Shown here piece after piece: positions 30,018-57,730 of a stretch of 64,000 nucleotides of DNA (the first letter of the stretch is position 1; each line of letters begins with the position of its first letter). The notes beneath the pieces are model-generated. The model saw nothing but the letters and a program-made list of their open reading frames with translations, had not been told where the DNA came from and searched no databases. This stretch comes from Pseudomonadota bacterium (lineage in GTDB: Bacteria; Pseudomonadota; Alphaproteobacteria; Sphingomonadales; Sphingomonadaceae), in assembly GCA_040388515.1 (NCBI GenBank), contig JAZKBQ010000004.1:182382-246381 (forward strand). Reading direction: 5' to 3'. Made by a program: the position numbers and the translations under genes.

Positions 30018-30206
30018 ATGACCGTCACCGAGATCAACCGCCGCGTCGCCGCCCTAATTGCGCTGGATGATCCTGAGGCAGCCGCCGCAGGCGCGGACGA
30101 GCTGAGGGTGGACGTGTTGCGGGCGATCGCCGAGGGTGACGACAACAACGTCGCGCTGGCCAAGGCGGCGCTGCGCACGGTCGACCAGGATGTCGGCGGG
30201 CGTTGA
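30018..30206 (+). CDS. Hypothetical phage protein
   Basis: 62-aa ORF. Confidence 0.4.
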   Translation: MTVTEINRRVAALIALDDPEAAAAGADELRVDVLRAIAEGDDNNVALAKAALRTVDQDVGGR

Positions 30207-38338: not shown

Positions 38339-38372
38339 GGGCGCGTTCGATACGGCTGAGCCGCAATCACGC

Positions 38373-38385
38373 TTAGCGCCGTCAG
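38373..38385 (-). promoter_or_regulatory. Late-region 13-nt motif copy 1 (CTGACGGCGCTAA on the coding strand)
   Basis: Exact copy. Starts 2 nt after the upstream TAA and lies 47 nt before the ATG at 38338. Confidence 0.7.
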
Positions 38386-38387
38386 TT

Positions 38388-38573
38388 TTAGGTAGAAGCT
38401 CTCACGATCTGCCGTTCACCGATCTCGGCGATGTCATCCTCGTCATAGTATCCGTCATCGCCGCAAATGATCCAAGTGCCCGCGCTGATTTCGGAGGCAA
38501 GCCACTCGGCCACACGCCAGTCGGAACCGACCTTGCGCCGGATCCAGTAAAACCCCGTTGCTCGCTTCGCCAT
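38388..38573 (-). CDS. Small hypothetical head-module protein
   Basis: Trimmed to MAKRATGFYWIRRK. Confidence 0.45.
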   Translation of the reverse strand: MAKRATGFYWIRRKVGSDWRVAEWLASEISAGTWIICGDDGYYDEDDIAEIGERQIVRAST

Positions 38574-38575
38574 GG

Positions 38576-39376
38576 TCAGTCGAATCGCAGAACGGCCCGT
38601 GATGTGCAACCACAGTACGGCAACTGGCCGGGCAAATCCTCGGGTGCGGTGGCGTCAGTGTAAATCATGCCATTGCGGGCGACATGGTTGGCGCGGGGAT
38701 GCTTCTTCCCCGAGTGCCGCCATTCCCAGCTATCGATGCCAGCCTCGCGGCGGCGTTCCTGATCGAGCGCCGCCGAGATCTTGATCATCTGGTCGCTGGC
38801 GATATTGAGCGCGCGGCGACGGCCCATGTCGACCGATTCCCTGATCTCCTTCGCAACATCCCGCGCCGATCGGCGTTCGGTCAGGCCGCGAAATACGGCG
38901 TCGGAGATCCTGCTACGGATCTGATCGCTCACCGACTTCACCAGCGCGACGTTGCGCTCGATCACGGCGCCCAAGGTTTCGCGGACGTCGCTCGCACCGA
39001 TAATGGTCCGGATGTCGACACCTGTCGCCGACAACACAGCGCCCCGCCATTTGCCGCGGTGCCATAGCTCGGTCAGGATCGCCCAGCGGTTGAGGGCAGG
39101 GCGCAGCGTCAGAAACAGCCGCATGAACTCGCCGTCGGCACCGTCGAGCTCGCGACCAAGGTCTGCCGCCGAATCCGTGACAAGCGCCGAAAGACTCCGC
39201 TCATATTCCGCTATCGCGCGATCAGCGGCGTGCGACCACAGAGTGATCACCGGCGCGTAAGCGGCGTGATACAGCCCCGTCGCCTGCACGCCAGTCGGTT
39301 GGATCGGGCGGAGGGTGATGCGTGACCGCTGCGGATTGCGCTCGCGACGAACGATCTGCGCGAGGTTGAACGACAC
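38576..39376 (-). CDS. Head morphogenesis protein (Mu gpF / SPP1 gp7 family)
   Basis: 266 aa, follows the portal gene. C-terminal WEWRHSGKKHPRANHVARNG...PGQLPYCGC motif of Phage_Mu_F. Confidence 0.8.
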   Translation of the reverse strand: MSFNLAQIVRRERNPQRSRITLRPIQPTGVQATGLYHAAYAPVITLWSHAADRAIAEYERSLSALVTDSAADLGRELDGADGEFMRLFLTLRPALNRWAILTELWHRGKWRGAVLSATGVDIRTIIGASDVRETLGAVIERNVALVKSVSDQIRSRISDAVFRGLTERRSARDVAKEIRESVDMGRRRALNIASDQMIKISAALDQERRREAGIDSWEWRHSGKKHPRANHVARNGMIYTDATAPEDLPGQLPYCGCTSRAVLRFD

Positions 39377-39377
39377 G

Positions 39378-41285
39378 CTACTTCTCGGTCAGGCGGGTCG
39401 CCCAGTCGTCGTCGACTTCTTCGAACATCTCGGGGCCGAAGCGCAGTTCGCCGCGGTATGGCTCAACCTTCGCCAGGTCGACGCCGGCGCCCTTATACGT
39501 GATTGTGACATGCGGCTGATACTCGGGGTAGTCTGAGGTCGCGCCCGCCTCGATCATCGCCTCGCGTCGGTACGCCAGCGCCGAAGAGTTGAACAGGAGC
39601 ACGACCGCGCCCTTATCACCCAGGGGTTCGACGATGCGCGCGCCGCCAGGAACGATGGTCAGGCCGCCCTTGTCATCGCTGTGCCAGTCCTGTCCGACCT
39701 TCATCCAGTCGATCTGGGTGCGTGAGTGGATGATTGTGACGTGCAACTCGTTTGCTGGCGTCGTCGTCTCGAACCCTTGCGACTTCGCCCAGGCGATGAA
39801 GTCCTTCGCGTTCAGCAGATTGCGGCGGACGTACAGCGATCGCGGTGCGGCGTCGGTCGTGCTGACCGGTGCACCCGGCTTACGCGGCGGCTGCGTCGGA
39901 TCCTGTTCGTTGCCGGGCTTCGGTGTGGCCTCGAGGTCGGCTTCATCAGGCTGCAACTCCCCGAAACGCTCATCTTCGGGGATTTCCTCGAGCGCATCTT
40001 CGAGCGCGGGCAGCATGGCCTCGTCGGTCAGCCACGACTGCACGCCCTTCGTCAGCGCGACGTCGGGTACGGTGGCAGTTGCCTGCACCTTGGTTACCGC
40101 GTCCATAAACGTGTTGAAGCGCGTCGCCTTCTCGGCAGGCGTTTCCTGATCGAGCGGCGCGAACTGATACCAGATCGACGGATCCACGCTGCCGAGCGCC
40201 GATCCGAGCAGGTAGGGGTCGATGCGATCGAGGCAGGGCGAGAGGTCGAGCGTCTGCTTTGCGCCGACCATCTTGTTCCAGTCGCGCTGCTGGCTGTTGC
40301 CGCTCGAGTTCATGCCTTCCGGGGCGGTGCCGAACAGGCGCGACTGCGGGATATCGCTGACCGCGCTGGCGAACATGGCGAAGCACATGATGATGTCCTT
40401 CGCGCCGGCGAAATTGTACTGCGCATCGGTGATCTCCTCGCCGATCTGACCATCGCCCTTGTCGTAGACGGTCGCGCTGAAGATGCTCTCGGCCATCTGA
40501 AAGGCGGCCATGCGGCGCTGGAACGACGCTTCGCCGGCGGTGTCGGCCACGGTCGCAAGCAGGTTCGGGATGCCGATGCGCGTGTTGCGCGCCTTCTGGA
40601 TGAGCGCGGCGAACGATTGGCGCGCGGAATCGCAATCCTCGACCGCATCGATGACCTGCGCGACACGGCTCTCCCCCCAGAACGCATTGTCGAGCGTGCT
40701 GAACAGGAGCACGGGCGGAGGATCGCCGCGGAAGGGAATGACGCGGCTGGGGTGGATATCGATCTGGCTGCTCTTGGTCTGGATCTTCCACATGACCGGC
40801 TCGCCGAAGCCCGCCTGGGTGGCATCGTCCTGCAACTCGCTGAACTGCAAGTGCTGGCGGCTGACGACGTTGATGTAGGCGAGCTTGCCCGTGCCCACCT
40901 TCTCCGGGGCAGGCGTGTTCGGCTGGCCGGGCAATCCGAGGATGAGAGCACCGCCACCGCAGCCGCGCATGACCTCGACCTGCCGGATCTTCTGGGGCAA
41001 CTGCAGCCGCTTCTCCTCGGCCTCGATCTTCTCGATCTGAGCGGAGTTCGCTTTCCAAAGCCGCCACTCGCGCACCATGTCCTCGGCGGGGATCTTGATG
41101 ATCTTGCGCATCAGCCCGGACGATGAATAGGCCGCAGCGATCTGCATCGGGTCATACGCCCGCATGGCATAGATGTTCGCCAGCCGCGGATCACGCATCG
41201 TGCCCATGCCGGTGATGGCATTGGTCAGCGAATCCTGGACGAAGCTATCCTTCAGCCGGACATTGGTGAGGCGGCCACCGCTCAC
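39378..41285 (-). CDS. Portal protein (DUF1073-type) fused to a C-terminal 2H-phosphoesterase-like domain
   Basis: 635 aa. The N-terminal ~435 aa are portal-like, followed by an acidic/Pro-rich linker. The C-terminal ~145 aa carry two HVTI tetrapeptides 77 residues apart. Confidence 0.75.
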   Translation of the reverse strand: MSGGRLTNVRLKDSFVQDSLTNAITGMGTMRDPRLANIYAMRAYDPMQIAAAYSSSGLMRKIIKIPAEDMVREWRLWKANSAQIEKIEAEEKRLQLPQKIRQVEVMRGCGGGALILGLPGQPNTPAPEKVGTGKLAYINVVSRQHLQFSELQDDATQAGFGEPVMWKIQTKSSQIDIHPSRVIPFRGDPPPVLLFSTLDNAFWGESRVAQVIDAVEDCDSARQSFAALIQKARNTRIGIPNLLATVADTAGEASFQRRMAAFQMAESIFSATVYDKGDGQIGEEITDAQYNFAGAKDIIMCFAMFASAVSDIPQSRLFGTAPEGMNSSGNSQQRDWNKMVGAKQTLDLSPCLDRIDPYLLGSALGSVDPSIWYQFAPLDQETPAEKATRFNTFMDAVTKVQATATVPDVALTKGVQSWLTDEAMLPALEDALEEIPEDERFGELQPDEADLEATPKPGNEQDPTQPPRKPGAPVSTTDAAPRSLYVRRNLLNAKDFIAWAKSQGFETTTPANELHVTIIHSRTQIDWMKVGQDWHSDDKGGLTIVPGGARIVEPLGDKGAVVLLFNSSALAYRREAMIEAGATSDYPEYQPHVTITYKGAGVDLAKVEPYRGELRFGPEMFEEVDDDWATRLTEK

Positions 41286-41287
41286 AG

Positions 41288-41512
41288 TCAGCGCTTCTCC
41301 GCCGCTGCCAGCTTTGCATCCAGCTCAGCGTTTGCGGCCAGCGCGGCCTCGTGGATCCGGTCGAGTTCGGCGACGTCGGCATCGCTCAGCGTGTGCTTGG
41401 CCTTCGCCGCTGCGTCCTTGATCGTCTGGATGCCGCCGACGATGTCAGCGACGACGCCCGGCAGGTTCAGCCGGGCGGCGATGTCGAGAAGCTTGAGTAC
41501 CTGGTCCATCAC
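41288..41512 (-). CDS. Hypothetical protein
   Basis: 74-aa helical ORF between the lysis cassette and the portal gene. Confidence 0.45.
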   Translation of the reverse strand: MMDQVLKLLDIAARLNLPGVVADIVGGIQTIKDAAAKAKHTLSDADVAELDRIHEAALAANAELDAKLAAAEKR

Positions 41513-41868
41513 TTGGCTCCTGTGATCGCGTTGAGGCTGTCGCTGATGTCGAACAGCCGTGCGGCAGCGCGCGCCTTCTCAGCCGCGTCGCTCGTGGCCT
41601 TCCCGCGGATCAGCAGGTCGCGTGCCTCGGCATTCCAGCCGCGCACTCGCGTCGCCGTGGCACCCGTGATCAATCCGCGGTCGGCCGCGACGCCGGAGAG
41701 TTTGGCGGCGGCGGTGTAAACGACTTCAGCAGCGCCGAATGCCCGCTGGCCGCTCAACACGACGTGATCGGCGGTGGCCACCACGCTGCCGGCCGACAGG
41801 GGCGCAAGCGATGCGCCGCAGCCCGACAGGGCAAGGGCGGCAGCGACCATAAATCCAAGACACTTCAT
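41509..41868 (-). CDS. Lipoprotein (o-spanin candidate)
   Basis: Trimmed to MKCLGFMVAAALALSGC (lipobox LSGC). ATGA overlap with the upstream TM protein gene. Confidence 0.55.
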   Translation of the reverse strand: MKCLGFMVAAALALSGCGASLAPLSAGSVVATADHVVLSGQRAFGAAEVVYTAAAKLSGVAADRGLITGATATRVRGWNAEARDLLIRGKATSDAAEKARAAARLFDISDSLNAITGAK

Positions 41869-42185
41869 GACTTTGCCTCCACAGGTTTGCCGCCGACCTC
41901 GGCCAGATTGACGTCGGAAGTTCCGTCCTTGCCGCCTGGCGGGGTCGCATTGATCGCGGTCGAGATCGCGTCCAACGCGGCGCCAGTGTTGTTGGCACGC
42001 TGCTCGTCGACCTTGTCGGTCCGGAACACGCCTTGGACGGCGACCGCGAGGCTCGTGCCGAGCGCGCCGATTCCGCCATCGACGATGCGCTGGGCGGTCT
42101 CGTTGATGTTGGCGAACATCGCGAGGCCCAGCAGCACCATGAAACCGATCGCCAGGACCGACGCGAGGATGATACGGCCGTTCAC
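41865..42185 (-). CDS. N-terminally anchored membrane protein (i-spanin candidate)
   Basis: 106 aa with a single N-terminal TM helix (IILASVLAIGFMVLLGLAMF). Follows the endolysin gene. Confidence 0.5.
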   Translation of the reverse strand: MNGRIILASVLAIGFMVLLGLAMFANINETAQRIVDGGIGALGTSLAVAVQGVFRTDKVDEQRANNTGAALDAISTAINATPPGGKDGTSDVNLAEVGGKPVEAKS

Positions 42186-42727
42186 AGCGACACCCGATTG
42201 CGCAGCCAGCCGAACACGAAGTCCTCATTGGCGACGCGGCCTCGCGCCAGCTGCTTGTAGCGGGCGCCCTGGTCGGCGTTCAGCCCCAGCAGCATCACGC
42301 GATCGGCTTCGGCTGCGCCACGCTTCGCACGCAGGGCGCGGAAGGCGTTCAGTGTTCCGAGCCCGATATCGCCGTCTTCCTTGATGTCGGCATAGTCGCG
42401 GCCCTGCTGGTTGAGGGCGTTCAGCCACTCCTGAAACCAGCGCGCCGGAACGTCGGGGCCCATGTTCACGCCCGTGTCGAACAACTCCTCGCCGACCGCG
42501 GGGCTGATCGCGGCCACAGCAGCAAAGCCGGGCTTGATGGCGAACTCCTGCCGATAGATCGCGACAGCCTTTTCGCGAGGCAGCTCGCGCATATCGCCCG
42601 CGTAACCGTTGCGTCGCGCGACCGCCTGCGTGACGCCCCAACGCGTCGGACCGCCGCGATCCGAAGGATGGTCGGAATAGCCGCCCTCCTTGCCGATTGT
42701 TGCCTCGATCATGCTGTCGATGCTCAT
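42182..42727 (-). CDS. Endolysin, glycoside hydrolase family 108 with PG_binding_3 domain
   Basis: Trimmed to MSIDSMIEATIGKEGGYSDHPSDRGGPTRWGVT, the GH108 signature. ATGA overlap with the upstream gene. Confidence 0.85.
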   Translation of the reverse strand: MSIDSMIEATIGKEGGYSDHPSDRGGPTRWGVTQAVARRNGYAGDMRELPREKAVAIYRQEFAIKPGFAAVAAISPAVGEELFDTGVNMGPDVPARWFQEWLNALNQQGRDYADIKEDGDIGLGTLNAFRALRAKRGAAEADRVMLLGLNADQGARYKQLARGRVANEDFVFGWLRNRVSL

Positions 42728-42999
42728 AGCTTGTCCCTCAGCCGCTCGATCTGATGCGCGACCTCGCTCAGGGCGCCTGTATTGGCGCGCAGGTCCTCGC
42801 TGTTCGTGCGCAGCCGTTCGGACAGCGTCGTCATGGATACGTTTTCCATCAGCACGCCCCCGACAAATGCCGTTGGTTCGACGGGCTTTTCTTTCCGCAG
42901 CGTCTTGATGCCTTGCCATACGCCAGCGACCGCAAGGCCGATGGTGGTGAGGACAATTCCGATCCCGGTGGCGATCGATTGAACATCAGCCGACCCCAC
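42724..42999 (-). CDS. Single-TM protein with C-terminal coiled coil (holin/antiholin candidate)
   Basis: GTG 42999. TM helix IATGIGIVLTTIGLAVAGVW. Immediately upstream of the endolysin gene. Confidence 0.45.
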   Translation of the reverse strand: MGSADVQSIATGIGIVLTTIGLAVAGVWQGIKTLRKEKPVEPTAFVGGVLMENVSMTTLSERLRTNSEDLRANTGALSEVAHQIERLRDKL

Positions 43000-43477
43000 G
43001 ACCGGCACCGTACACGTTGGCCAAAAGCTGCCGGCGGCTACGCTCGGCAAACGTAATATCCATCCCCGCTCGGTAAGCCGACGCCAGGTCGGCGATGACC
43101 AGCCAGCCGTAAACTGCGAGCCCAGTGTTGGGGATGCCCACACGCAAAAGGCCGAGTGTGATTTCGGCAAAGAGGAAAGCGCTCGCGACGCTGCAAGCAG
43201 CGCGGATGACGGGCGTGCGCGTGTAGGCGCCGTTCACGAACAGGGCGAAGGCGCGAACCATGCCGCAGACGAGCGCACCGCCACCCCAAATCGCGGCAGG
43301 CGGGTAGCCGGTTTTATCGCTGAGGCTTGTTAAGCCGGCCAGGACTGTCGCTGTTGCTGCCTGCGTGAACACTTCGGGATGCAACAGGATGTAGCCGCCC
43401 CACGTCACCGCGACTGCCGACATGTACCACTCAGGGAAACGTGCCGGAAAATGCTTCTTGAGGGATTGAATGAGCAT
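42986..43477 (-). CDS. Polytopic membrane protein (about 4 TM; holin-like)
   Basis: 163-aa hydrophobic ORF in the lysis cassette. Confidence 0.5.
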   Translation of the reverse strand: MLIQSLKKHFPARFPEWYMSAVAVTWGGYILLHPEVFTQAATATVLAGLTSLSDKTGYPPAAIWGGGALVCGMVRAFALFVNGAYTRTPVIRAACSVASAFLFAEITLGLLRVGIPNTGLAVYGWLVIADLASAYRAGMDITFAERSRRQLLANVYGAGRGVG

Positions 43478-43489
43478 CAGCCCTGCCGG

Positions 43490-43642
43490 TTATTTGCAGG
43501 GCTGACCATCTCGGCGCGGGCACTCATCGTCCGCGTTCGGATGGTTCGCGGCGTTGTCGGGCACGGTGTTTGACCATGAAGCCGGTGGCTTCTGACCACA
43601 TGCGGTCAATGCGAGCAGCGCGACCAGGATCAATGGCTTCAT
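43490..43642 (-). CDS. 50-aa lipoprotein
   Basis: Below the track cutoff. My translation is MKPLILVALLALTACGQKPPASWSNTVPDNAANHPNADDECPRRDGQPCK (lipobox LTAC, GGAGAC RBS). Confidence 0.5.
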   Translation of the reverse strand: MKPLILVALLALTACGQKPPASWSNTVPDNAANHPNADDECPRRDGQPCK

Positions 43643-43705
43643 GGTGATGTCTCCGCAGTCGGCCGAAAGAATGGCGAGCGGAATGGCAGCGGGGCAGGGG
43701 CGCCG

Positions 43706-43718
43706 TTAGCGCCGTCAG
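43706..43718 (-). promoter_or_regulatory. Late-region 13-nt motif copy 2
   Basis: Exact CTGACGGCGCTAA, 4 nt after the TGA of the 43723 gene and 76 nt before the ATG at 43642. Confidence 0.7.
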
Positions 43719-43722
43719 AAAA

Positions 43723-44790
43723 TCAGTTCTGCTTCACGATGTAGATATCGGAGCCTTCGCGCAGGATCGTGCCCTGCGCGTTCGTCGCATTCTGCCCCCA
43801 TTCGAGCGTCAGGAAGCCCGGTACTGCACCCATCTTGAGCGTGCCGTCGAGGTTCGTGCGGAACTTGCCGACGGCCAGTGTCAGCACCTGGATAGAGGCT
43901 AGGCCGAAGATCGCGACGGTCGGTGCCGAACTGAGGGGACCGACCTCGAGCTCGGGCAATCCGGACACCGTGGCGAGCGCGGCGCCCTGTGCGTCCAGCA
44001 CGCGCAGCTGGTACCGGAAACCGGCCAACGCATTCTGGCTCTGGTACCGCAGATACATCGCGATGTGATATATCCCGCCAGCCTCGACAGGCACGACGAG
44101 GTCGGGATCCGCAACGAGCGCGTTTGAAACGCGGGTCGTGTCGGCCAGCTTGGGAATGCGGCGCTGACGCTTGAGCGGGATCGTCGGAGCGCTGCCGACG
44201 CCCGGCCATCCCGTGGAAGGATCGACAGCCTGAACACCGGCGGAATTGATCGCGGCATCGATGGCGGCCAACTTGGTGTTCGCGTTCGCCTTGCAGGCTT
44301 CGATGAAGGCGACGACCGTCTTCTGCGTCACAGCGACTTCGTCGGCGGTGTGCGCCGCGTATGATCCGGCCTGCATCATCACGTTGTATGCGGCCGGCGC
44401 GGCGACGGTGTTGACGGCGTTGATCATGTTCGTCGCCTGGCCGTCGAGCTGGTTCCGGTTGAACTCGTCGGTCGCGACCACACCCTTCGAACCCATGACG
44501 CCCGCAGCCATGGCGGTAGCGAGTGCCGAGTTCACCAGCGCCTTCCGCGCGGCCTTCTCATCGGCAAGGCTCGTCGCGGTGACGTAGCTCGATCCGTTCC
44601 AGCTGTGGGATGCGAGATAGGCGGCGGTGTAATACTTGAAGCCGCGCGTTGACGCATCCCAATAGGCGAGCGTCGGATATCCGAGCACAGCGGTAATTGC
44701 GGTCCGACCAGCCACCTCGGCGGGTTTTTCAGCAACGGGGGTCGGTGAGACGAGCGCGCCAGTCGCATTGATGTACGTAAGCCAGCCCAT
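43723..44790 (-). CDS. Tail-associated protein (fibre/accessory), function unknown
   Basis: 355 aa, directly after the host-specificity gene. Confidence 0.5.
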   Translation of the reverse strand: MGWLTYINATGALVSPTPVAEKPAEVAGRTAITAVLGYPTLAYWDASTRGFKYYTAAYLASHSWNGSSYVTATSLADEKAARKALVNSALATAMAAGVMGSKGVVATDEFNRNQLDGQATNMINAVNTVAAPAAYNVMMQAGSYAAHTADEVAVTQKTVVAFIEACKANANTKLAAIDAAINSAGVQAVDPSTGWPGVGSAPTIPLKRQRRIPKLADTTRVSNALVADPDLVVPVEAGGIYHIAMYLRYQSQNALAGFRYQLRVLDAQGAALATVSGLPELEVGPLSSAPTVAIFGLASIQVLTLAVGKFRTNLDGTLKMGAVPGFLTLEWGQNATNAQGTILREGSDIYIVKQN

Positions 44791-47198: not shown

Positions 47199-47199
47199 G

Positions 47200-49327: not shown

Positions 49328-51708
49328 CAGATGGTGAACCGGTTTGCGTTGATGAGCGTCTGCTGTTCGGCAGCGTCAATGATGCTGGGAGCACCGGCGC
49401 GGAGCACCTCGACAGCCACCGGCCCCGACGTGCGCACGATGCGGGCATCGATGTCGTCGGACAGCATCAGGCTGACAGTAACGGCGCCCTGCGCAGCGGC
49501 GGCGGGCTGGGCGGCTGCTGCGTTGACCTGGCCGAGCGGGATGACCTGCCCCCCCTGTGATCCCATGCGGAGAAGTTCGACACCGGCACCTCGATGTTCG
49601 TTGACGCGGACTGTCTGCCCTGGGCCAACGTATCCGCCGGAAGCGCGACCGAAGATGCCGCCTCCGATATTGTTGATCACGCGACCGATGCTGCCGAAGA
49701 TGTCGCCGCCGCCGCCGCTGTCCCCTCCGCCGAGTAAGGTTGCGAGCGGCTTGATGATGGTCTGCTGGATCGCGATGCGAAGCAGATCGGCAACGATCTG
49801 ATTTGCCACATTCTTGAAGACGTCGCCGAGATCCTTGCTGTTCGCGATCGCGTCGGCGAGACCGTCGTTCAGAGAGCGGAGGCCGTCGACTGCGACATTC
49901 TGCAAAGCCTCATTGATCTCCTCGGCCGTGCGGGGGATGTCGTCGATGAACTTGCCCAACGGACCTTGGTTGCGCTTCTCCGCTGCGCGCTGTTGTGCAT
50001 TGCCCTGGGCGCCCAGCGCGTCGATCTGGTCCTGAATGGCCTTCTTGCGCTGCAGGTCCTTTTCGTCGGCGAGCTGCAACTGCAGAGCGATCTTTTTCCG
50101 CTCGATGGCGATCGCGATGAGGGACGTCTCGATATCCAGCCGCTCCTTAGCGGTGCGCGCGAAGTCCAGCTGGCTGCGCAAGTGCTCCTCGTCGATGTCG
50201 AGAGCCACATTAGCGATGTCGGCGACGCGCTTGCGCTGCTCGCTTTCGAGGCGCTGCTGCACGACCGCAGCCCGCGCCGCCGCCACCTTGTCGTTCTCGG
50301 CGATCAGCTGCGCCTTGCGTGCCGAGTCCAGCCCCTTGAAGTGTTGCGCATCGTTGTTCGCCGCCTGGCGCTCGACCTCGATCGCTGCCAATTCGGCCTT
50401 GGCTCGGTCATCAATAGTGCCCGACAGATCGGCCATCGAACGCAGGATCTCGATCTGAGCGCGTGCCATCTCGTCGTTGAAGTGCCGCGTGATCTGCTCG
50501 AGGTCCGGGCCTTTGGGGCCCTTGGGTCCTGCAACCGGCGTGATCCCGCTGCTATCACGCGGTGCGGCTGTGTCGGATGGCCTCGACAGGGCAGCGGCGC
50601 CCTGCAGCATCTCGCGGCCGGTGCGCAGCTTTGCTGTGGCTTCGTTCAGGCGCTTTGTCAGGAACTGGGGAACAGCGCTCTGGCCGGTCGGATCGATGCG
50701 AAGGGCGGCCTGCAGACTGGCACGCAGCTTCTCGACGCGGGGCCGCTGCTGCTTGATGAGGTCGGCACCGAGTTGAGCCTGACCGGCAGGCGTCGCCGCC
50801 TTGATCAGATCATTGCCGTCGAACGTGCCGAGCGCGGAGATGAACCCCTTCGAGCGCGCGATGTTGGCGAACCCGAGGAATTGCTGACCGGCTTTGATGG
50901 CATATTCGGCGACCTTGGCGAGCGCTTCCGCCAACTGTCCGATCGCCTGCGCATTACTGGACACGACGTCTGCCAGCCGCGCCTCAAGTGCCTTGTTCAA
51001 ACGCTCGATCTTGTTCGCCACCTGGTCGGCGTTGTTGATCTTGCCATCGGACAGGATGAGGCCGAACGCCGCCGCTTCCTGCGCCTGTTTCCGATATGCT
51101 TCTGCACCTGCGATGAGCGTAGGCAGGATGGCCGTCGCCGAACCTTTGAACAGATCCGTCGCGCGCGAGGCCTGCTGCGCCGGATCCTTGATTGCGGCGA
51201 TCGCGTCGGCGACCTTCAGGAAACGATCGGTCTCGCTCGACCGCTTCAGATCCTCGAGGCTGAGCTTCAGGTTCGTGACCGCCGCAACGGCGCTCTTGCT
51301 CTTGCCGTTGAACGCATCGCCCAACGACTTCGAGAATGCCGCAAGCGCCCCATCGGCTTCCTTGACGGTCGCTCCGTTTGAGGTTGCGGCGTAGCGAAAC
51401 TCCTGCAGGAACTTCGTCGTGACGCCGAGGCTCTTGGCAACGTTTCCGAGCGAAGCAGCATAATCGAGACCCGCCTTGGTCGACGCGACCAGGCTGGCGA
51501 CGACGGCACCGATGCCGGCCACGGCGAGCGCGGAAGCGGCCACGGTAACGGTGCGCAGTGCCGTCCCGATGTTCTTGGCCATCCGGTCGGCGGAATCACT
51601 CATGCGCCGGAAACCGGCGTCGCTTTTGTTCACCGAATCGGCAATGCGCCGGTTGTATTCGACGTTCTCCGCGATCAGCTGCAGGATGACGGGATCGATC
51701 TGGCCCAT
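49327..51708 (-). CDS. Tail tape measure protein
   Basis: 793 aa, Ala/Gln-rich helical protein with a C-terminal Gly-rich segment. Follows the chaperone frameshift pair. Confidence 0.85.
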   Translation of the reverse strand: MGQIDPVILQLIAENVEYNRRIADSVNKSDAGFRRMSDSADRMAKNIGTALRTVTVAASALAVAGIGAVVASLVASTKAGLDYAASLGNVAKSLGVTTKFLQEFRYAATSNGATVKEADGALAAFSKSLGDAFNGKSKSAVAAVTNLKLSLEDLKRSSETDRFLKVADAIAAIKDPAQQASRATDLFKGSATAILPTLIAGAEAYRKQAQEAAAFGLILSDGKINNADQVANKIERLNKALEARLADVVSSNAQAIGQLAEALAKVAEYAIKAGQQFLGFANIARSKGFISALGTFDGNDLIKAATPAGQAQLGADLIKQQRPRVEKLRASLQAALRIDPTGQSAVPQFLTKRLNEATAKLRTGREMLQGAAALSRPSDTAAPRDSSGITPVAGPKGPKGPDLEQITRHFNDEMARAQIEILRSMADLSGTIDDRAKAELAAIEVERQAANNDAQHFKGLDSARKAQLIAENDKVAAARAAVVQQRLESEQRKRVADIANVALDIDEEHLRSQLDFARTAKERLDIETSLIAIAIERKKIALQLQLADEKDLQRKKAIQDQIDALGAQGNAQQRAAEKRNQGPLGKFIDDIPRTAEEINEALQNVAVDGLRSLNDGLADAIANSKDLGDVFKNVANQIVADLLRIAIQQTIIKPLATLLGGGDSGGGGDIFGSIGRVINNIGGGIFGRASGGYVGPGQTVRVNEHRGAGVELLRMGSQGGQVIPLGQVNAAAAQPAAAAQGAVTVSLMLSDDIDARIVRTSGPVAVEVLRAGAPSIIDAAEQQTLINANRFTI

Positions 51709-52315
51709 TAGCTACGCGCCGCCATGAACCGTCGAAGCTCATCAGAGACCTCGACCTTGCGCTTGCCTTCGCCGTCCGGCTTCGGCTGTGCATCGTTATG
51801 TGCGATCAGGGCCTCGACATAATCGCTGAGCGATGCCGACCGCCAGTCGAGACCCAGCACGCCGCAGTTCGCGATCACTTGGCCTTTGCGGAAGGGCTCG
51901 ACCTTCGCCGGCCTGTCATCACTTTTTTTTTAGGATCTACACGCACGCCCATCACGGCGGCGTCGAGAATTGCCCAGGCAACCGGCAGGATCTCGGCAAT
52001 CGGTCGGCCGTGAACGTAGGTCTCGACGATGCGGGTCGCATCTAGCGGCGACACGGTGACCTTCACCTTGTCGACCATGCCTTCACCACCGCCGATCAGA
52101 CCGTGCCGGATGACGGACGCGATGTCCTTCATTCGCGCTTCGCCGCCACCCATGAAGATCGGATCGCCATCGGCGACAATGCCGAGCGATGCCCCGAACT
52201 CATGATGCATCTTGAGGATCGAGCGATCGTTGCCCTCGATCGACAGGATTTGCGGCATATTCAGGTGAAAGCGGTACTTACCGTCGCCGAAAAGCCGTTC
52301 GATCGCGGTATCCAC
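51708..52315 (-). CDS. Tail assembly chaperone, -1 frameshift (GT-like) product
   Basis: A -1 slip on the A9 run continues SDDRPAKVEPFRKGQVIANCGVLGLDWRSASLSDYVEALIAHND...FMAARS. It stops at a TAA overlapping the tape-measure ATG (TAATG). Confidence 0.65.
51875..52315 (-). CDS. Tail assembly chaperone (G-like, GTA g10-like)
   Basis: 146 aa, between the major tail and tape measure genes. Confidence 0.7.
   Translation of the reverse strand: MDTAIERLFGDGKYRFHLNMPQILSIEGNDRSILKMHHEFGASLGIVADGDPIFMGGGEARMKDIASVIRHGLIGGGEGMVDKVKVTVSPLDATRIVETYVHGRPIAEILPVAWAILDAAVMGVRVDPKKKVMTGRRRSSPSAKAK
51923..51931 (-). other. Programmed -1 ribosomal frameshift slippery run (A9 on the coding strand)
   Basis: CCT AAA AAA AAA GTG near the 3' end of the chaperone ORF. 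The -1 frame stays open to the tape-measure start. Confidence 0.65.
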
Positions 52316-52327
52316 GACGAGGCTCCT

Positions 52328-52774
52328 TTACGGGTTTGGCGTCCAAGTCGGAAAGTTCTCGCCGTCCATCGTGATCTCGCCAGTGCCTTCGCTTTGCGAG
52401 AACGACATGTTGTTGGTCGTGAGAACAAGCGGGCCCGAATACGTGCCGAGCAGCAGGCCGGCGTCGGTACCGTCACGTTTGCAGCAGATGATCTTGTAAT
52501 TCTTTGAAATGCCCAGTGCCGCGTCGAGCGTGGGGACCATGGCAGCGTTGAATACGCCGTTCGCGGTCACGCCCCACGTCTTGCCCGTGACCTTGACCTT
52601 ACCCGTCGGAACCTGACCGGGCTTGGCGCAGTCGCGGCGAAACTGCTTCGTCGACTCGACCCCTTTGTTCACTTGGCCGTTTTCAAATCCGCAGAGAACG
52701 GTGAACACCTCAGTCGGCGTGGCGCCATCCCCGATGAGGATTTGACCGAAGTCGATTTCTGTCGGGTAGCTCAT
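52328..52774 (-). CDS. Major tail (tube) protein, TP901-1/GTA-like
   Basis: 148 aa, upstream of the chaperone pair. Confidence 0.7.
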   Translation of the reverse strand: MSYPTEIDFGQILIGDGATPTEVFTVLCGFENGQVNKGVESTKQFRRDCAKPGQVPTGKVKVTGKTWGVTANGVFNAAMVPTLDAALGISKNYKIICCKRDGTDAGLLLGTYSGPLVLTTNNMSFSQSEGTGEITMDGENFPTWTPNP

Positions 52775-52831
52775 GCCGGTCTCCGCGAAGCAATTTCGCG
52801 GTCGGCAGGTACCGGTTGCGTTTTCTTATTC

Positions 52832-52844
52832 TTAGCGCCGTCAG
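52832..52844 (-). promoter_or_regulatory. Late-region 13-nt motif copy 3
   Basis: Exact CTGACGGCGCTAA. Its TGA is the stop codon of the 52841 gene. It lies 70 nt before the ATG at 52774. Confidence 0.7.
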
Positions 52845-53146
52845 AATGAACCGCTCGACAGCGCAGCGTCATCGGCGGTGCGCCGCGCCTCGGCCAGGGC
52901 GTTCTCGCGTTCGAAGAGACGGTGGAATGCGCTCGCCAAAAAGTGGAACGGCAGGATTGCACCGATGCTCGCACCCCCACTTGCGATTAGGCCAACGAGT
53001 AGCCCCATGCCGTCCGGCCCGGTTGCATATTCGGCAGTGATCATGACGTTGCGCACCATGCTCACGAGGACATAGGCGGAAATGCAGCTGGCGATGATGG
53101 TGCAGATGTCGGCCAGCGTTGCCAGCACCAGAAACACGTTCCTCAT
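52841..53146 (-). CDS. Small integral membrane protein (moron in the tail operon)
   Basis: Trimmed to MRNVFLVLATLADICTIIASCISAYVLV (AGGGGG RBS). 2-3 TM helices. Confidence 0.55.
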   Translation of the reverse strand: MRNVFLVLATLADICTIIASCISAYVLVSMVRNVMITAEYATGPDGMGLLVGLIASGGASIGAILPFHFLASAFHRLFERENALAEARRTADDAALSSGSF

Positions 53147-53159
53147 CGAGCCCCCTGAA

Positions 53160-53483
53160 TTACTGCGATGCGCAGATGCCAGTAAAATCCCCGTGCGCAC
53201 CGGTGATCGTCAAGCGATTACTTCTTCGGTCGAACAGCAGGTTGGCGTTCGCCATCAGGTTGGCCGGGATTTTGCCGGTGATAGCGTCGGGTGTCGCCTT
53301 TGCCTTGCGCAACTGAAACCATCCATCTTTGCCGCCATGGACCGTCGGCAGGACGTGCCGCGGCGGCTTCACCTCAACGCCGACCTCTGACATGCGCAAC
53401 TGCGCAGGATCGGGCCGTCGCGCGTCGTCGCTCGGGCAAGTCAGCAGCGTTGAAGCTGCGGCCATCAGAATCGCAGTGGTCAT
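53160..53483 (-). CDS. Lipoprotein (moron in the tail operon)
   Basis: Trimmed to MTTAILMAAASTLLTC (lipobox LLTC). ATGA overlap with the upstream gene. Confidence 0.55.
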   Translation of the reverse strand: MTTAILMAAASTLLTCPSDDARRPDPAQLRMSEVGVEVKPPRHVLPTVHGGKDGWFQLRKAKATPDAITGKIPANLMANANLLFDRRSNRLTITGAHGDFTGICASQ

Positions 53484-53710
53484 CGATGTGGGTCTGGCAC
53501 GATCGCGAGATGCGGTCGAGGGGCGGGCTTCTGCGGCAGGTCTTCGGCGTCGACCTCGATCAGGCACGCACCGACGAAACCAGCGGCTTCTAGCTCGCCA
53601 TCGGCCATCAGTGATTCGTGCATTGCCTTCGCATCGATCGCGCCTTGGCGGATCAACTCCTTGATCAGGGCATGCAGGGTGGCGTCGAGCATCGGTGCCC
53701 GACGTAACAC
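53480..53710 (-). CDS. Small hypothetical protein
   Basis: 76-aa ORF (alternative start at M7). Confidence 0.45.
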   Translation of the reverse strand: MLRRAPMLDATLHALIKELIRQGAIDAKAMHESLMADGELEAAGFVGACLIEVDAEDLPQKPAPRPHLAIVPDPHR

Positions 53711-53717
53711 GGAGCGA

Positions 53718-54155
53718 TCAGGCCGTCACCTTCGCGCGCACGGTGCAGAAATAATGGAACGCGTCAGGCTCACCGGCATCGGTCATCAACGTCATGTCGG
53801 TGAGCATGTATGAGATCTGCGCGCCGGTTATCGTGTCGCCCTTGGCGTCGAGGGCGGTCTCGATTGCTTCGCCGATCCGGCCGGCATGATCTTCGGCGGT
53901 TTCGACCTCGGCCTGGTTGCCGTCGAATCGCGATCGCGCGAACGCGTGAACCGGCATTGTCACGATGGCGCCGTCGAGGCAGGCGGCGCGGCGCGGGATC
54001 GTCGTCGGCTGGCCGGTCTTGATGAACGGCCAGGTCGGTTTGACGGGAGGTGACTGCCCGTGAATGTTGTTCGCATTCACGAGCGCCGTCACCCCCGCGG
54101 CGCCTTTAAGCCTTGTCAGCAGCGCCCGCCGAACCTGCCTTTGCAGCCCCTTCAC
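53718..54155 (-). CDS. Tail completion/terminator-like protein (DUF3168-like)
   Basis: 145 aa, GTG start. Position follows the gp10-like adaptor. Confidence 0.55.
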   Translation of the reverse strand: MKGLQRQVRRALLTRLKGAAGVTALVNANNIHGQSPPVKPTWPFIKTGQPTTIPRRAACLDGAIVTMPVHAFARSRFDGNQAEVETAEDHAGRIGEAIETALDAKGDTITGAQISYMLTDMTLMTDAGEPDAFHYFCTVRAKVTA

Positions 54156-54285
54156 GCGATTCGCCCTTCACGACGCCGGCCGCCTTCGCGTCCTCCAATC
54201 GCTCGGGCGGAATCTCGGTCCCGGCCTTGAACGCCGTGATCTTCTCGCCGCTGCGATAGTCCCAATCCTTTGAAAACACCGACAT
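54106..54285 (-). CDS. Possible 59-aa ORF
   Basis: My translation is MSVFSKDWDYRSGEKITAFKAGTEIPPERLEDAKAAGVVKGESREGAAKAGSAGAADKA. It fills the gap after the gp10-like gene but overlaps the next gene by 50 nt. Confidence 0.3.
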   Translation of the reverse strand: MSVFSKDWDYRSGEKITAFKAGTEIPPERLEDAKAAGVVKGESREGAAKAGSAGAADKA

Positions 54286-54288
54286 GCT

Positions 54289-54714
54289 TCATCCTTTCAC
54301 CACATGGTTCACTGCTTGGGTAACGAGTTCCTGAACGGCCGCGCGCTCGGCGTCGCGCGCTGGAACCATATACGGGCGAGCCGCCATCTTCGACGATCCG
54401 AACTCAAGCGGCGCAGCATACGGCGCGTTGCTCGATATCTCGGCGACGAGCGGCTCTTTCAGCACGGCCTCGATGTTGTTCTTCAGCACGCCGGTGTCGT
54501 TGTTCGGTGGCTCGCCGGGATTGGATGGCACGTGGTTCTTGCCGCTGACCGATCCCTCAGTGATCAGGTACTGCGCTTTCGCCTTGATGCGATCGGCACC
54601 GGCGTACAGCGCTGCACCGATCTGGCGCGTCGCCTCCGGCGACGTCAGCCGCTTGAGCCGCGCGATATGTTCAGCTGCGCCACGCATCGCCATCAGACCT
54701 TCCGCCCGCGACAT
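54289..54714 (-). CDS. HK97 gp10-family head-tail adaptor
   Basis: 141 aa. NAPYAAPLEFGSSKMAARPYMVPA matches the gp10 family motif. Confidence 0.7.
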   Translation of the reverse strand: MSRAEGLMAMRGAAEHIARLKRLTSPEATRQIGAALYAGADRIKAKAQYLITEGSVSGKNHVPSNPGEPPNNDTGVLKNNIEAVLKEPLVAEISSNAPYAAPLEFGSSKMAARPYMVPARDAERAAVQELVTQAVNHVVKG

Positions 54715-55058
54715 TCAAACCCGATGCCCGCGGGATCCTGATCGACGCTACGGATCGACCAGGTGCCGGCGTGCGGGCCGGACGCGACGATGATTCGCGC
54801 CTGCTGGTCGATGGGGCGGGTGAGACCGTCAGCCAGTACGATGATCCGCACGTCGGTGTCGACGAAGTCATCACTCGAGCGCATGGCATCGGTCACGCGG
54901 TCGAACTGGACCCGGCACGCCACGTTCTGCGCCACGCCCGGCGCGGTGATCGAGCCACCTGCGTCCCTCGTGGCGGTACCGGGCCAAGTCGCGACCGCGG
55001 GGCCGTACAGGCCGGGCACAAGGCTCGCAGCGCCGGCGAACATGGCCGCGAAATTCAT
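54693..55058 (-). CDS. Head-tail joining protein
   Basis: 121-aa ORF between the DUF4054-like and gp10-like genes. Confidence 0.5.
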   Translation of the reverse strand: MNFAAMFAGAASLVPGLYGPAVATWPGTATRDAGGSITAPGVAQNVACRVQFDRVTDAMRSSDDFVDTDVRIIVLADGLTRPIDQQARIIVASGPHAGTWSIRSVDQDPAGIGFECRGRKV

Positions 55059-55411
55059 CAGTACACCCGTGGGCCGCTGAACGCCTGTGCGCGCAGCGCG
55101 GCGAACTCACGGCCATAGCTGGTCGCCTGCAGGCCAGTGCGCGATGCAGCGGCGTCGGACAGGGTGGCCGAGAACGCGCCCGAGCGGAAACTCGACACAC
55201 CCTCGGCGACGGTCTCACCCGCCGCGCCGCTCGCGGTGATCATGTGGGCGGCATAGGTCAGCTGGGCGCGCTGGCGGATGTTGTCCGGCCAGTTATCGCC
55301 CGCGACCGTCATCGCCTCGTCTAGCCAATAGTTCACCGTGTCGTCGGACACCGTCGCCATCGCCGGATAGCGGAGGCGGAACGCTGCCAGCAGTTCAGGG
55401 GGGACGGCCAT
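55058..55411 (-). CDS. DUF4054-like head-tail connector protein
   Basis: Trimmed to MAVPPELLAAFRLRYPAMATVSDDTVNYWL. Confidence 0.55.
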   Translation of the reverse strand: MAVPPELLAAFRLRYPAMATVSDDTVNYWLDEAMTVAGDNWPDNIRQRAQLTYAAHMITASGAAGETVAEGVSSFRSGAFSATLSDAAASRTGLQATSYGREFAALRAQAFSGPRVY

Positions 55412-55446
55412 GGGGCAGGACGGATATGCGCGCAGGGGATGCGCGG

Positions 55447-55459
55447 TTAGCGCCGTCAG
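55447..55459 (-). promoter_or_regulatory. Late-region 13-nt motif copy 4
   Basis: Exact CTGACGGCGCTAA. Its TGA is the terL stop codon. It lies 48 nt before the ATG at 55411. Confidence 0.7.
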
Positions 55460-56889
55460 GCGTTGCTGAGGTCGTACGAGACCTTCGGTGCCCACATCGC
55501 CATGATGAATGCGTCCGCAAGGTTTGGTGAAGGCTGAGGCCCGCCGGGGCGGTTCTTCTTCGCCAGATCCTTCTTGCTCTCGACCTTCACCTTGCCGGCG
55601 TTGTCGTAGTCTCGCTTCGGCGTACAAAGCTCGTCGATGAGGCGGGGTAGATTGTCGAGCTCAGACGAGATGAAGATCATATCGGCCTGGTCGAATGTCG
55701 CGCCCCGTTTCACCGCGTTGAATGTATTGCGGAACCGATCGGCGACGTTCCACCACGCCTGCGCTTTCACGTTCGAGAACATCTCCTTGTTCGTCTTCGG
55801 AGGATGCGCACGGGTGTAGGCCGCGTCAGGACTGGCCACGGCACCGCCGGCATTGAAACCGGTGTGTCGTACGGTATCGCCGGGCGTATTCAGTTCGTTG
55901 ACCTTGGCGCCGACACCAGCGCCCACGCCGATGCTGTCGTACGTCAGCTGCGCATCGCGCTCCGCGGCGGCCGCACGAGCACGCGTCGCGGATTTGAGCA
56001 GCTCGTCTTCGCCGCCTTTCCACATGTCCGACCAGGTCGCGAGCGGACCGAGCGCATGAATGAGTGCGTTCTTGTCGGCACCGCTGTCGGCAACGTCAAA
56101 GCCGATCCGGCTTGCACCGCTGGGAGTGATGCCCAGCTTCTCGTGCGCGTCGATCGCCGCCATGACCCACGATCGCTTGATGACCGCGCCCGCATCATCG
56201 TCCTTGGGGATGCCCAGGTAGACGTGCTGGAATTCGTCCTCGTCCTCGTCCTTGGCCGCGTCGATCACACGCAGCATGGTCTCGGAGAGGAAAGGGTTTT
56301 CGGTGTAGTTGATAACCCGGGCGATGGTGCCAGGCGGCGGGTTGAGCACGAAGCGACGCCAGGCAAAGTCGGTCGACAAGATCGGATTGAACACAATCCA
56401 GAACTGCGAGCCCGCCTTGCGGATCGTCGGTTCGAGGATCTTCCACTGCTCCTGCGTCAGCGCATGCGCTTCCTCGAGCCAGCAAATGTCGATCCCTTCG
56501 AGGGATTTGATCTCGGAGATGTGGCGCCAGAGCCCGTAGAAAATGAACTCGGAACCGGTCCGCTTGTGGATGATCTTGTTGTCGAGAATGCGGAATTGCC
56601 GCTGCAGTCCGAACCGCTCGATTTGCAGCACGAGCAGCGAATAGACCGATTCCTCGATCTTGTTCTGAAACTGGCGAGCGCACAGGACTTTGATCTTGAG
56701 GTTGCACGCTAGGTAGATCGCGAAGCCCGCCGCATCCCATGACTTCGACGAGGCTCGACCGCCATACAGGACGCGATTGCGGATCGGCTCCTGCCGCTCG
56801 TTGACCCGAGCCAGCCAGAAATCCTGCAGCGTGGGATTGAGCGTCGGTCCGCCGTTGTGGCCGATACCCGCGATGGGTTCAGCCAGCAT
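55456..56889 (-). CDS. Terminase large subunit (PBSX/Terminase_3-like)
   Basis: Trimmed to MLAEPIAG. Walker A-like YGGRASSKSWD and a C-terminal nuclease half. Confidence 0.85.
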   Translation of the reverse strand: MLAEPIAGIGHNGGPTLNPTLQDFWLARVNERQEPIRNRVLYGGRASSKSWDAAGFAIYLACNLKIKVLCARQFQNKIEESVYSLLVLQIERFGLQRQFRILDNKIIHKRTGSEFIFYGLWRHISEIKSLEGIDICWLEEAHALTQEQWKILEPTIRKAGSQFWIVFNPILSTDFAWRRFVLNPPPGTIARVINYTENPFLSETMLRVIDAAKDEDEDEFQHVYLGIPKDDDAGAVIKRSWVMAAIDAHEKLGITPSGASRIGFDVADSGADKNALIHALGPLATWSDMWKGGEDELLKSATRARAAAAERDAQLTYDSIGVGAGVGAKVNELNTPGDTVRHTGFNAGGAVASPDAAYTRAHPPKTNKEMFSNVKAQAWWNVADRFRNTFNAVKRGATFDQADMIFISSELDNLPRLIDELCTPKRDYDNAGKVKVESKKDLAKKNRPGGPQPSPNLADAFIMAMWAPKVSYDLSNA

Positions 56890-57403
56890 CGGCCTTTGCC
56901 TCGCCGGCGCCATAGAAATCGGCAAGGCTTGGCGGGCTCATGCTGCCATCGGAGCTGGTGTGATCGATCTGCTCGCGGAATGCGCTGACGAACACGTGCT
57001 TGCCGAGCATCTCAAGGCGACGTCCACGATCGGCGAGCTTGATCTTGTGGACCGTCTCGCCATCACCGTCGACGATGGTTTCGATGCCCGCGACAAGCCC
57101 TTTACGCCAGATGCTCGGCCAGTCCTTTACCGGCTTGAGCTTGCCCGCATCGTCGTAAAGATCGGACAGATCGGCATCAACCTCCTCGCCGAGCCGGCGC
57201 AGGACCCAGTCGGCGTCGATTTTGGTCCGTTCCGATCGGCTCAGCTGCCCCGCGGTGATTGCGGCCTGCACCTTAACATTTCTGCACAGCCGCGCGGCCT
57301 GCTGCTCGGCTGTTTTAGCGCTGTACCCGGCGCGAATGGCCGCCTGCGTCCCGTTGAGGTCGAGCAGGTACTCATCAACAAATCGCTGTTGCTTGGGGGT
57401 CAT
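56879..57403 (-). CDS. Terminase small subunit (Terminase_2-like)
   Basis: MTPKQQRFVDEYLLDLNGTQAAIRAGYSAKTAEQQAARL is the canonical opening (alternative start TTG 57412). Confidence 0.85.
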   Translation of the reverse strand: MTPKQQRFVDEYLLDLNGTQAAIRAGYSAKTAEQQAARLCRNVKVQAAITAGQLSRSERTKIDADWVLRRLGEEVDADLSDLYDDAGKLKPVKDWPSIWRKGLVAGIETIVDGDGETVHKIKLADRGRRLEMLGKHVFVSAFREQIDHTSSDGSMSPPSLADFYGAGEAKADAG

Positions 57404-57412
57404 GTCGCCCAA

Positions 57413-57730
57413 CTATCCCTTCTTTTTTCCGCCGCTTAGAGCCGTCAGCGTCCGGCCCAACACATACCGCGACGCCCGGTTCTTCGACCGCAGGGCAGGG
57501 CGTGCGGTGGCGCCAGTAACTGCTCGACGTTCGGCCCGAAGCTCTTCACCCCCGGCCTCGTCGATCCACCGCCTGATGACCCGCCAGTTCGTCCGGTAAT
57601 GATCCCTGATCTCGATCGAGTTCCCGAGGCGCAGGAACACCTCGCGGAAATCGGCGGGGAGGGGACGGTACGGTCGGATATCGCCCTGATCCCAGCGGCG
57701 TTGCCGACGCGGAGGATCGGCGGCGGTCAC
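57413..57730 (-). CDS. Hypothetical protein upstream of terS (possible late regulator/DNA-binding protein)
   Basis: 105-aa basic ORF. Its 3' end carries motif copy 5. Confidence 0.45.
   Translation of the reverse strand: MTAADPPRRQRRWDQGDIRPYRPLPADFREVFLRLGNSIEIRDHYRTNWRVIRRWIDEAGGEELRAERRAVTGATARPALRSKNRASRYVLGRTLTALSGGKKKG
57436..57448 (-). promoter_or_regulatory. Late-region 13-nt motif copy 5 (one mismatch)
   Basis: CTGACGGCTCTAA inside the last codons of the 57413 gene, 45 nt before the terS ATG at 57403. Confidence 0.6.

Follow-up and report, generated by a model that had tools for sequence, protein, structure and literature searches.

A prophage in a 64,000-nucleotide (nt) stretch of a sphingomonad genome (contig JAZKBQ010000004.1 of assembly GCA_040388515.1, positions 182,382–246,381; hereafter the window) carries a 13-nt asymmetric motif, CTGACGGCGCTAA, at five places in its late gene region. 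We conclude that these five motifs are probably the upstream halves of the prophage late promoters, which would be switched on by a 105-aa helix-turn-helix (HTH)-like protein encoded immediately ahead of the terminase gene terS. The motif stands at a set distance from a second conserved element and from start codons, and comparative data on loci link it to the protein family by co-occurrence and by co-variation across two motif classes. The original prediction, made from the window sequence, had likened the repeats to the stoperators of mycobacteriophage L5 and had listed as alternatives a late-activator or phage-sigma promoter core and an RNA processing site; the comparative evidence favours the late-activator or sigma alternative and also favours the product of the gene at 57413, which had been named among the candidate binders.

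The late-module motifs and a second conserved element

Four copies of the motif are exact and a fifth, CTGACGGCTCTAA, has one mismatch; all lie at the positions originally given and on the minus strand, the strand of late transcription (Table 1). Gene calling guided by GC content at third codon positions, together with Pfam and PHROGs, gives the following order on that strand: replication genes (DnaB at 58809–60269), the 105-aa gene, terS, terL, head-tail connectors, major tail protein, tape measure and distal tail genes, lysis cassette, portal, MuF, protease/scaffold and major capsid protein. The modules that follow the motifs begin with terS, the head-tail adaptor (re-called as 55058–55411), the major tail protein, the lysis cassette and the protease/scaffold gene. 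The TGA within the motif is the stop codon of terL in one copy and of a 119-aa gene in another, the copies at 38373 and 43706 begin 2–4 nt past a stop codon, and the remaining one lies inside the 3' end of the 105-aa gene. This context is as the original prediction had described it. The overlap with stop codons looks incidental, with upstream genes running up to a predicted promoter that happens to hold an in-frame TGA and TAA.

The repeats exceed chance, as had also been claimed. Seven matches with two or fewer mismatches occur in the window, against a mean of 2.09 in 100 dinucleotide shuffles, none of which reached seven, and a position weight matrix (PWM) built from the sites of other phages alone recovered precisely the five window sites, which all lie in the late region, with no further match on the plus or the minus strand. 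A megablast search of the 23-kb late region against GenBank phages gave no match.

Counting from the T of TGACGG as position 1, positions 1–12 are invariant across 14 aligned sites from four phages. A second conserved element follows 20 nt after this 12-mer, where positions 31–34 read C/G, G/A, T (12 of 14 sites) and A (14 of 14), and most of the aligned sites have an ATG at position 45–47. The 13-nt motif is real, but the conserved unit is larger than had been proposed and bipartite, with its second element at positions 31–36. This second element was replicated in IMG/VR, using a scan for the 12-mer plus an ATG at position 46 that left the TA unconstrained and excluded loci from a TA-constrained scan: A34 is present in 53 of 63 sites linked to an open reading frame (ORF) and in 7 of 32 non-ORF controls (Fisher p=4e-9), and T33 in 38 of 63 and 8 of 32, respectively.

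Within the window, the next ATG lies at position 45 (terS), 48 (adaptor), 70 (major tail protein), 76 (lysis) and 47 (protease), in agreement with the 45–76 nt first reported. Across 11 loci there are 23 sites with the ATG at position 45–48, and pairing of these starts with the anti-Shine–Dalgarno (anti-SD) sequence is weaker than for 115 other genes of the same phages (median −3.5 versus −6.6 kcal/mol; Mann–Whitney p=1e-7); a dG of −5 or below is reached by 26% of the former and 77% of the latter. Sites with longer spacing bear an SD sequence. The same division is seen in the window, where the three sites with an ATG at 45–48 have no SD (the adaptor and protease genes are without any; Table 1) and the two longer-spaced sites each have a GGAGA SD (−6.6 each). 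In such long-leader sites the conserved A keeps its distance to the motif and not to the ATG.

With the TA read as −12/−11, the motif covers about −44 to −33 and transcription would start on or beside the A of the ATG. The geometry fits promoters with the motif in this location, a minimal −10 and leaderless or near-leaderless mRNAs. As expected of activator-dependent late promoters, the motif is found at a set distance from a −10-like TA and recurs at late operon starts, from which we infer the position of initiation. The GCTAA embedded in the motif had been likened to a −10 consensus in the original prediction, and its assignment as the −10 is probably wrong: the −10-like TA is separate, 20 nt downstream, and the motif sits in the −35 region. 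A −10 at GCTAA is also the less likely choice because it leaves both the conserved TA at +20 and the SD-less ATGs without explanation. Pairing the CTGACG of the motif, as a sigma70 −35, with the downstream TA was rejected since the spacer would be 26 nt.

Recurrence of the element with a family of small proteins

The exact window motif is absent from 32 terL-related genome loci, and locus-specific variants were therefore sought. L001 (Sphingomonas sp. Root720), the locus with the nearest terL (82% identity), is without the window motif; its terL strand has three copies of the 12-mer TGGCGTCCGTAG, one immediately past terL, one shortly ahead of the protease/scaffold gene and one following a third stop codon. 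Three independent phages (L040–L042) have TGGCGTCCGTAG both at the terL–portal junction and ahead of the protease gene, followed by an ATG at position 45–46. None of these four loci, which we term the L1 class, contains an exact copy of the window type; phages with the window-type motif form the W class, in which four to five elements are dispersed through each phage.

Genomic context was fetched for six homologs of the 105-aa protein (L034–L039). All six loci contain TGACGGCGGTAA, one base off the window motif and always on the gene strand. The sites are syntenic (L034–L036, L039), lying at the 3' end of the candidate regulator gene, between terL and portal, between MuF and protease, and before the adaptor gene. 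The copy inside the homologous regulator gene is at 10269 in L034 and at 10260 in L035, and copies precede the homologous protease gene in L034, L035, L036 and L039. In the same four loci the regulator gene is directly upstream of terS, beside quite different replication modules, while L037 and L038 are integrase/primase elements that encode the regulator.

Loci encoding the family contain 18 exact copies in 204 kb, all co-oriented, compared with none in the 559 kb of 24 terL-related loci without the family. The motif class goes with the 105-aa protein and not with terL, terS or the immunity repressor. The L001 protein has 20 homologs that form a subfamily, and the subfamily with a changed predicted helix 3 (L001, L040–L042; EFGLHWQTERRC versus HYRTNWRVIRRW) pairs with TGGCGTCCGTAG at the same sites and with the same spacing. 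The window terL is 79–82% identical to the L1-class terLs and has no detectable similarity to the terL of other W-class phages, and L037 and L038 share with the window phage the regulator, the motif and nothing else; at the level of sequence, the terL comparison and these two elements break the confound with lineage. L040 and L042 have a 94%-identical regulator, the same motif and unrelated immunity repressors, and L035 has a different repressor candidate again.

The association was also tested in reverse, starting from sites in IMG/VR. The search with a 14-base pattern is noisy, with hundreds of chance matches expected, and is informative only when anchored on the portal gene with enough upstream DNA. 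Where a portal-linked site has at least 2.9 kb of DNA upstream, the family is encoded upstream on the same strand in 8 of 9 loci, and where less than 2 kb is available it is found in 0 of 5. Raw co-occurrence with the family is 10 of 120 loci, and sites without the ATG geometry behave like chance (1 of 77 loci). A control of matched composition, with C at motif position 9, gave one multi-copy locus, five geometry-positive sites and no family member, compared with 27, 40 and 10 for the pattern with G at this position.

This position separates the window from other phages. All five window copies have C at position 9 (…GCTAA or …TCTAA) and the widespread form elsewhere has G (…GGTAA). The C9 form occurs at chance level in IMG/VR, where its scan returned no locus related to the window phage, so that it represents a concerted, phage-private single-base change across five predicted promoters. 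The change from G9 to C could not be tied to a residue change in the regulator.

Other features of the compared loci concern the regulator and the placement of its sites. L037 (sites at 9955 and 12060) and L038 (5440, 9956 and 12440) both carry canonical copies, an integrase, an AlpA-like gene and a primase, and both have, 46–47 nt upstream of the regulator's own ATG, degenerate copies whose distances to TA and ATG are correct, a hint of autoregulation. Also present are a PycTM (Pycsar-effector-like) protein in L038 and a HigBA pair in L037. In L040 (~19540–19583) and L042 (~19770–19813) a terminator-like GC hairpin with a T-run follows the capsid-region genes and directly precedes the gene for the head-tail adaptor; neither phage has a promoter element there, whereas the adaptor gene of L034 has one.

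Some 100 homologs of the 105-aa protein were found, every one of them annotated as hypothetical and lacking a Pfam domain, and a profile search of 1.84 billion representative proteins yielded 585 clusters (50% identity), nearly all of small proteins. Searches of Pfam, PHROGs, NCBIfam and PDB-sequence profiles returned nothing for it, and Foldseek gave no significant match in PDB or BFVD (best E 0.2–3), the weak ones being HTH regulators. An AlphaFold2 model has a confident helical, HTH-like core (pLDDT 86–88) with helices at residues 28–35, 39–45, 49–58 and 62–72, and some distant multi-repeat members of the family match Pfam HTH_28, HTH_23 and HTH_17 in the stretch corresponding to helix 2–turn–helix 3. 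An HTH DNA-binding domain is therefore likely. A few family members (P0124, P0176, P0200 and P0215) contain 3–6 tandem copies of the ~60–70 aa regulator domain in one polypeptide, P0124 having five repeats of P-x-DFR...RW(I/V)EECGG(D/E)ELR. The family C-terminus GRTLTAV/L is encoded by the predicted terS promoter element (CTG ACG GCG GTA A), so that the same DNA serves as coding sequence and as predicted promoter element. A literature text search for the motif sequences found one match, in an unrelated paper, and the protein family and its element appear to be undescribed.

Proposed late promoters and alternative readings

From the computed motif statistics, bipartite geometry, synteny, co-occurrence and co-variation with the family, and the lack of SD sequences, we infer initiation, its exact starts, direct binding and activation as follows. 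Each promoter would consist of (c)TGACGGCG(C/G)TAA at about −44 to −33, a non-conserved spacer of 20 nt and a minimal −10-like element, C/G-R-T-A, the conserved A of which would lie at about −11/−12. Transcription of terS, the adaptor gene and the protease/scaffold gene would start at or within ~3 nt of the A of the ATG and produce leaderless or near-leaderless mRNAs; that of the major tail gene and the lysis cassette, both with a normal SD, would start ~25–30 nt upstream of the ATG. Having no sigma70-type −35 hexamer and a weak −10, the promoters should be silent alone. The 105-aa HTH protein would bind the asymmetric element in one orientation beside RNA polymerase and so switch the five promoters on, acting either as a class-II-type activator or as a surrogate for sigma region 4, and the first of these promoters would be contained in the 3'-terminal part of the gene for the activator itself.

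Several points weigh against this model. The −10-like element is very weak, only its TA being conserved, and the L1-class element has CA instead of TA. The IMG/VR locus L056, the lone exception among the nine portal-linked loci, has the canonical motif, and its 68-aa ORF upstream of the terminase gene is a doubtful diverged homolog (hhalign E=8e-4 over 25 columns). The co-variation is based on two motif classes only. The protein for which we propose DNA binding has no significant sequence or fold match to known regulators, and an asymmetric site of 12–13 bp is longer than one small HTH would be expected to need.

Promoters of extracytoplasmic function (ECF) sigma factors combine a −35 AAC and a −10 CGT across a spacer of N16/17. 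The W-class arrangement G(G/C)TAAC-N17-CGTA resembles this AAC-N16/17-CGT architecture, which raises the possibility that the promoters are read by an alternative, ECF-like sigma factor of the host or the phage, with the 105-aa protein as a co-factor or a sigma-region-4-like subunit. The weak top Foldseek matches of the protein, to the tetra-helical HTHs of GerE, LuxR, RcsB and DosR, which are related to sigma region 4, point the same way, but they are not significant (E>2). We consider this reading unlikely. No sigma region 2 gene was seen in the gene tables of these phages or in a Pfam scan of the window, and 105 aa is too small for a full sigma factor. Moreover, the L1-class element (TGGCGTCCGTAG ... 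CA) has neither AAC nor CGT, and the switch in specificity goes with the small protein and not with the host.

A role for the motif in RNA, as a processing site or as the target of an RNA-binding antiterminator or translation factor acting on a long late mRNA, would suit the location of all copies on the transcribed strand at gene junctions, and temperate phages commonly make one long late transcript. RNAalifold, however, recovered no structure common to the 22 sites compared (energy 0.0), and the z-scores of single sequences fall mostly in the range −2 to +1. The conserved A about 11–12 nt ahead of SD-less ATGs looks like the −10 of a leaderless gene, the associated protein resembles a DNA-binding HTH, and processing would leave translation of SD-less genes 45 nt downstream unaccounted for unless cleavage itself made a leaderless 5' end. 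Taken together, we give a function in RNA little credence.

The stoperator analogy fares worse still, and we think it very improbable that an immunity repressor or other lysogeny protein binds the 13-mers at gene ends, blocks elongating RNA polymerase and thereby silences the late modules. The likeness is superficial: a 13-bp asymmetric site, in one orientation relative to transcription, placed in short intergenic spaces at stop codons. The repressor of L5 binds a 13-bp asymmetric site as a monomer, and its sites are oriented with transcription in short intergenic spaces (PMC9283540). Repressor sites of this type also act as operators at early promoters, number more than 20 across the genome and block elongation (PMC9283540). 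The window has five sites, confined to the late region, and neither its early region nor L033, a locus that supplies the immunity region beyond the window edge (cI, cro and the early-left operon) and is identical to the window over an overlap of 4.9 kb, contains a copy with one or fewer mismatches. Nor does the motif class follow the repressor, as the unrelated repressors of L040 and L042 with the same motif, and the different candidate in L035, make clear. A link to a TA over 20 nt and a set distance to SD-less starts are likewise not expected of a roadblock. The absence from the immunity region, the repressor control and the promoter-like geometry thus argue against stoperators. While the co-orientation is shared with those of the Cluster A mycobacteriophages (18 of 18 copies in the family loci and 5 of 5 in the window), the elements described here are restricted to late genes, track a different protein and have the geometry of promoters.

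It is hardly credible that the repeats are packaging (pac/terS) sites or recombination linkers that mark module boundaries with no role in expression, for although the synteny breakpoint between the window and L001 falls at an element and module order varies among the phages that share it, phages with one and the same motif differ in terS family (the window and L035 have Terminase_2, L034 and L036 the Sf6 type, and L037 and L038 none that was detected nearby) and neither recombination nor packaging needs a strict orientation, a 20-nt link to TA or a set distance to the ATG. Module exchange at shared promoters is plausible as a by-product.

Known late-gene switches, prophage context and implications

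The proposal of late promoters switched on by the 105-aa protein most likely represents a new example of a familiar phage strategy and not a new kind of system. The sites of the Mu activators C and Mor are dyad-symmetric and bound by dimers, and differ in this from the asymmetric element described here. There is also no sequence or Pfam relationship between these activators and the 105-aa protein. The late promoters of Mu (Plys, PI, PP and Pmom, with activator C; Mor acts at Pm) are nevertheless alike in being dispersed, heading sub-modules (lysis, head, tail) and having a poor −35. The passages of PMC3152322 that deal with such activators describe C as a small phage HTH activator whose binding site overlaps the −35 region, from −30 to −55, which the activator predicted here would match. 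Distinct from Mu are the leaderless transcripts predicted at three of the five promoters and the location of one promoter inside its activator's own coding sequence. The same passages place the sites of P2 Ogr at −55 and of P1 Lpa at −22 and give T4 gp55 an 8-bp −10 motif; in these phages, as here, a short conserved late-promoter motif recurs at several operon starts under one phage-encoded factor (PMC3152322). The motif of the window, by contrast, would lie at −44 to −33, and there is no zinc-finger protein, sigma-like gp55 or inverted repeat.

In Gram-positive phages, late activators are encoded in the same position as the 105-aa gene, upstream of terS (PMC3753634), and this position of the Ltr superfamily is matched in the window and in L034–L036, L039, L040 and L042. 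Ltr proteins (RinA, ArpU, LtrA/B/C) act specifically on the control region that belongs to them, and one family, LtrA, is similar to sigma region 4; their binding target is a region of DNA repeats ahead of terS, and the entire late cluster is driven from one promoter (PMC3753634). In the present phages, four to five promoters, each with one asymmetric 12–13 bp site, would be dispersed through the late genes, and the hosts are sphingomonads and other Alphaproteobacteria. No match between the 105-aa protein and the RinA, ArpU, Sigma70_r4, DUF1492 or LtrC families was found in Pfam, NCBIfam, PHROGs or PDB sequences. The gene transfer agents (GTAs) regulated by GafY, GafZ and GafA are comparable as phage-derived structural clusters of Alphaproteobacteria that need a dedicated activator. 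GTA promoters are sigma70 promoters with a degenerate −35; GafY, which requires IHF, has its binding site far upstream, and GafZ works by antitermination (PMC11150451). The site described here, on the other hand, abuts the −35 position, and each module has its own predicted promoter.

Table 1. Coordinates of the five predicted late promoters and of the candidate activator gene in the window
Feature	Position	Strand	Comment
Late-promoter upstream element CTGACGGCTCTAA	57436..57448	-	In 3' end of regulator gene, encodes L-T-A-L; predicted promoter of terS-terL
-10-like GATAGT (positions 31-36)	57412..57417	-	terS ATG 57403 = position 45
Late-promoter upstream element, exact	55447..55459	-	TGA = terL stop; predicted promoter of head-tail connector module; PWM score 26.7
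-10-like CATATC	55423..55428	-	Adaptor ATG 55411 = position 48; no SD (duplex dG +0.7)
Late-promoter upstream element, exact	52832..52844	-	TGA = stop of 119-aa gene; predicted promoter of tail module
-10-like GGTACC	52808..52813	-	Predicted ~25 nt leader with GGAGA SD; major-tail-protein ATG 52774
Late-promoter upstream element, exact	43706..43718	-	Predicted promoter of lysis cassette, portal and MuF genes
-10-like GCCATT (A at position 34)	43682..43687	-	Predicted ~30 nt leader with GGAGA SD; ATG 43642
Late-promoter upstream element, exact	38373..38385	-	Predicted promoter of protease/scaffold and major-capsid module
-10-like CGTATC	38349..38354	-	Protease/scaffold ATG 38338 = position 47; no SD (duplex dG +0.1)
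Candidate late activator gene, 105 aa, HTH-like	57413..57730	-	Last gene of early/replication operon, directly upstream of terS

The order of modules in the window (terL, connectors and tail, lysis to portal and MuF, protease and capsid) departs from that of its relatives L001 and L034–L036 (terL, portal and MuF, protease and capsid ... connectors). The location of the L001 breakpoint at a promoter element suggests that shared promoters may act as recombination junctions. The portal protein (39378–41285, minus strand) has a C-terminal Acb1 domain, a 2H phosphodiesterase directed against the cyclic-oligonucleotide-based antiphage signalling system (CBASS), with matches to PF06381 (E=7e-93) and PF23474 (E=1e-38). 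The fusion recurs in L034, L036 and L039–L042 and, as judged from sequence, would make a virion protein the carrier of an anti-defence enzyme. The left part of the prophage (21399–30328) encodes an N6_N4_Mtase (21875–23155), an XRE-type HTH protein (23152–23703), a Dam-like methyltransferase (24552–25121) and an SRAP peptidase (28565–29203). The host boundary appears to lie near 21.3 kb, adjoining a glycoside hydrolase gene (19597–21207); a scan of the window for a tRNA that might mark an attachment site found no tRNA.

A bolder extension of the late-promoter proposal is possible, although we regard it as doubtful. The 105-aa protein might be a minimal monomeric '−35 reader' that replaces sigma region 4 and sets the start exactly at the late-gene AUG. 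Its ~70-aa domain and the 12-bp site might then form a portable, re-programmable pair, with at least two specificities and natural proteins of 3–6 tandem domains, that is shared among phages and integrative elements in Alphaproteobacteria and allows cross-activation by a co-resident phage.

If correct, the assignment of the five motifs to activator-dependent late promoters would provide a defined promoter element and a candidate activator family for 585 clusters of what are now all 'hypothetical proteins', together with a simple rule for annotating late operon starts and the true start codons of leaderless genes. The two matched classes of protein and site would then constitute a natural specificity-swap experiment, and short orthogonal activator/promoter pairs could serve as expression parts in high-GC Alphaproteobacteria. 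It would also account for the identical short sequences at the module boundaries of these mosaic phages, and would supply the missing late-gene switch for phages of sphingomonads and related Alphaproteobacteria.

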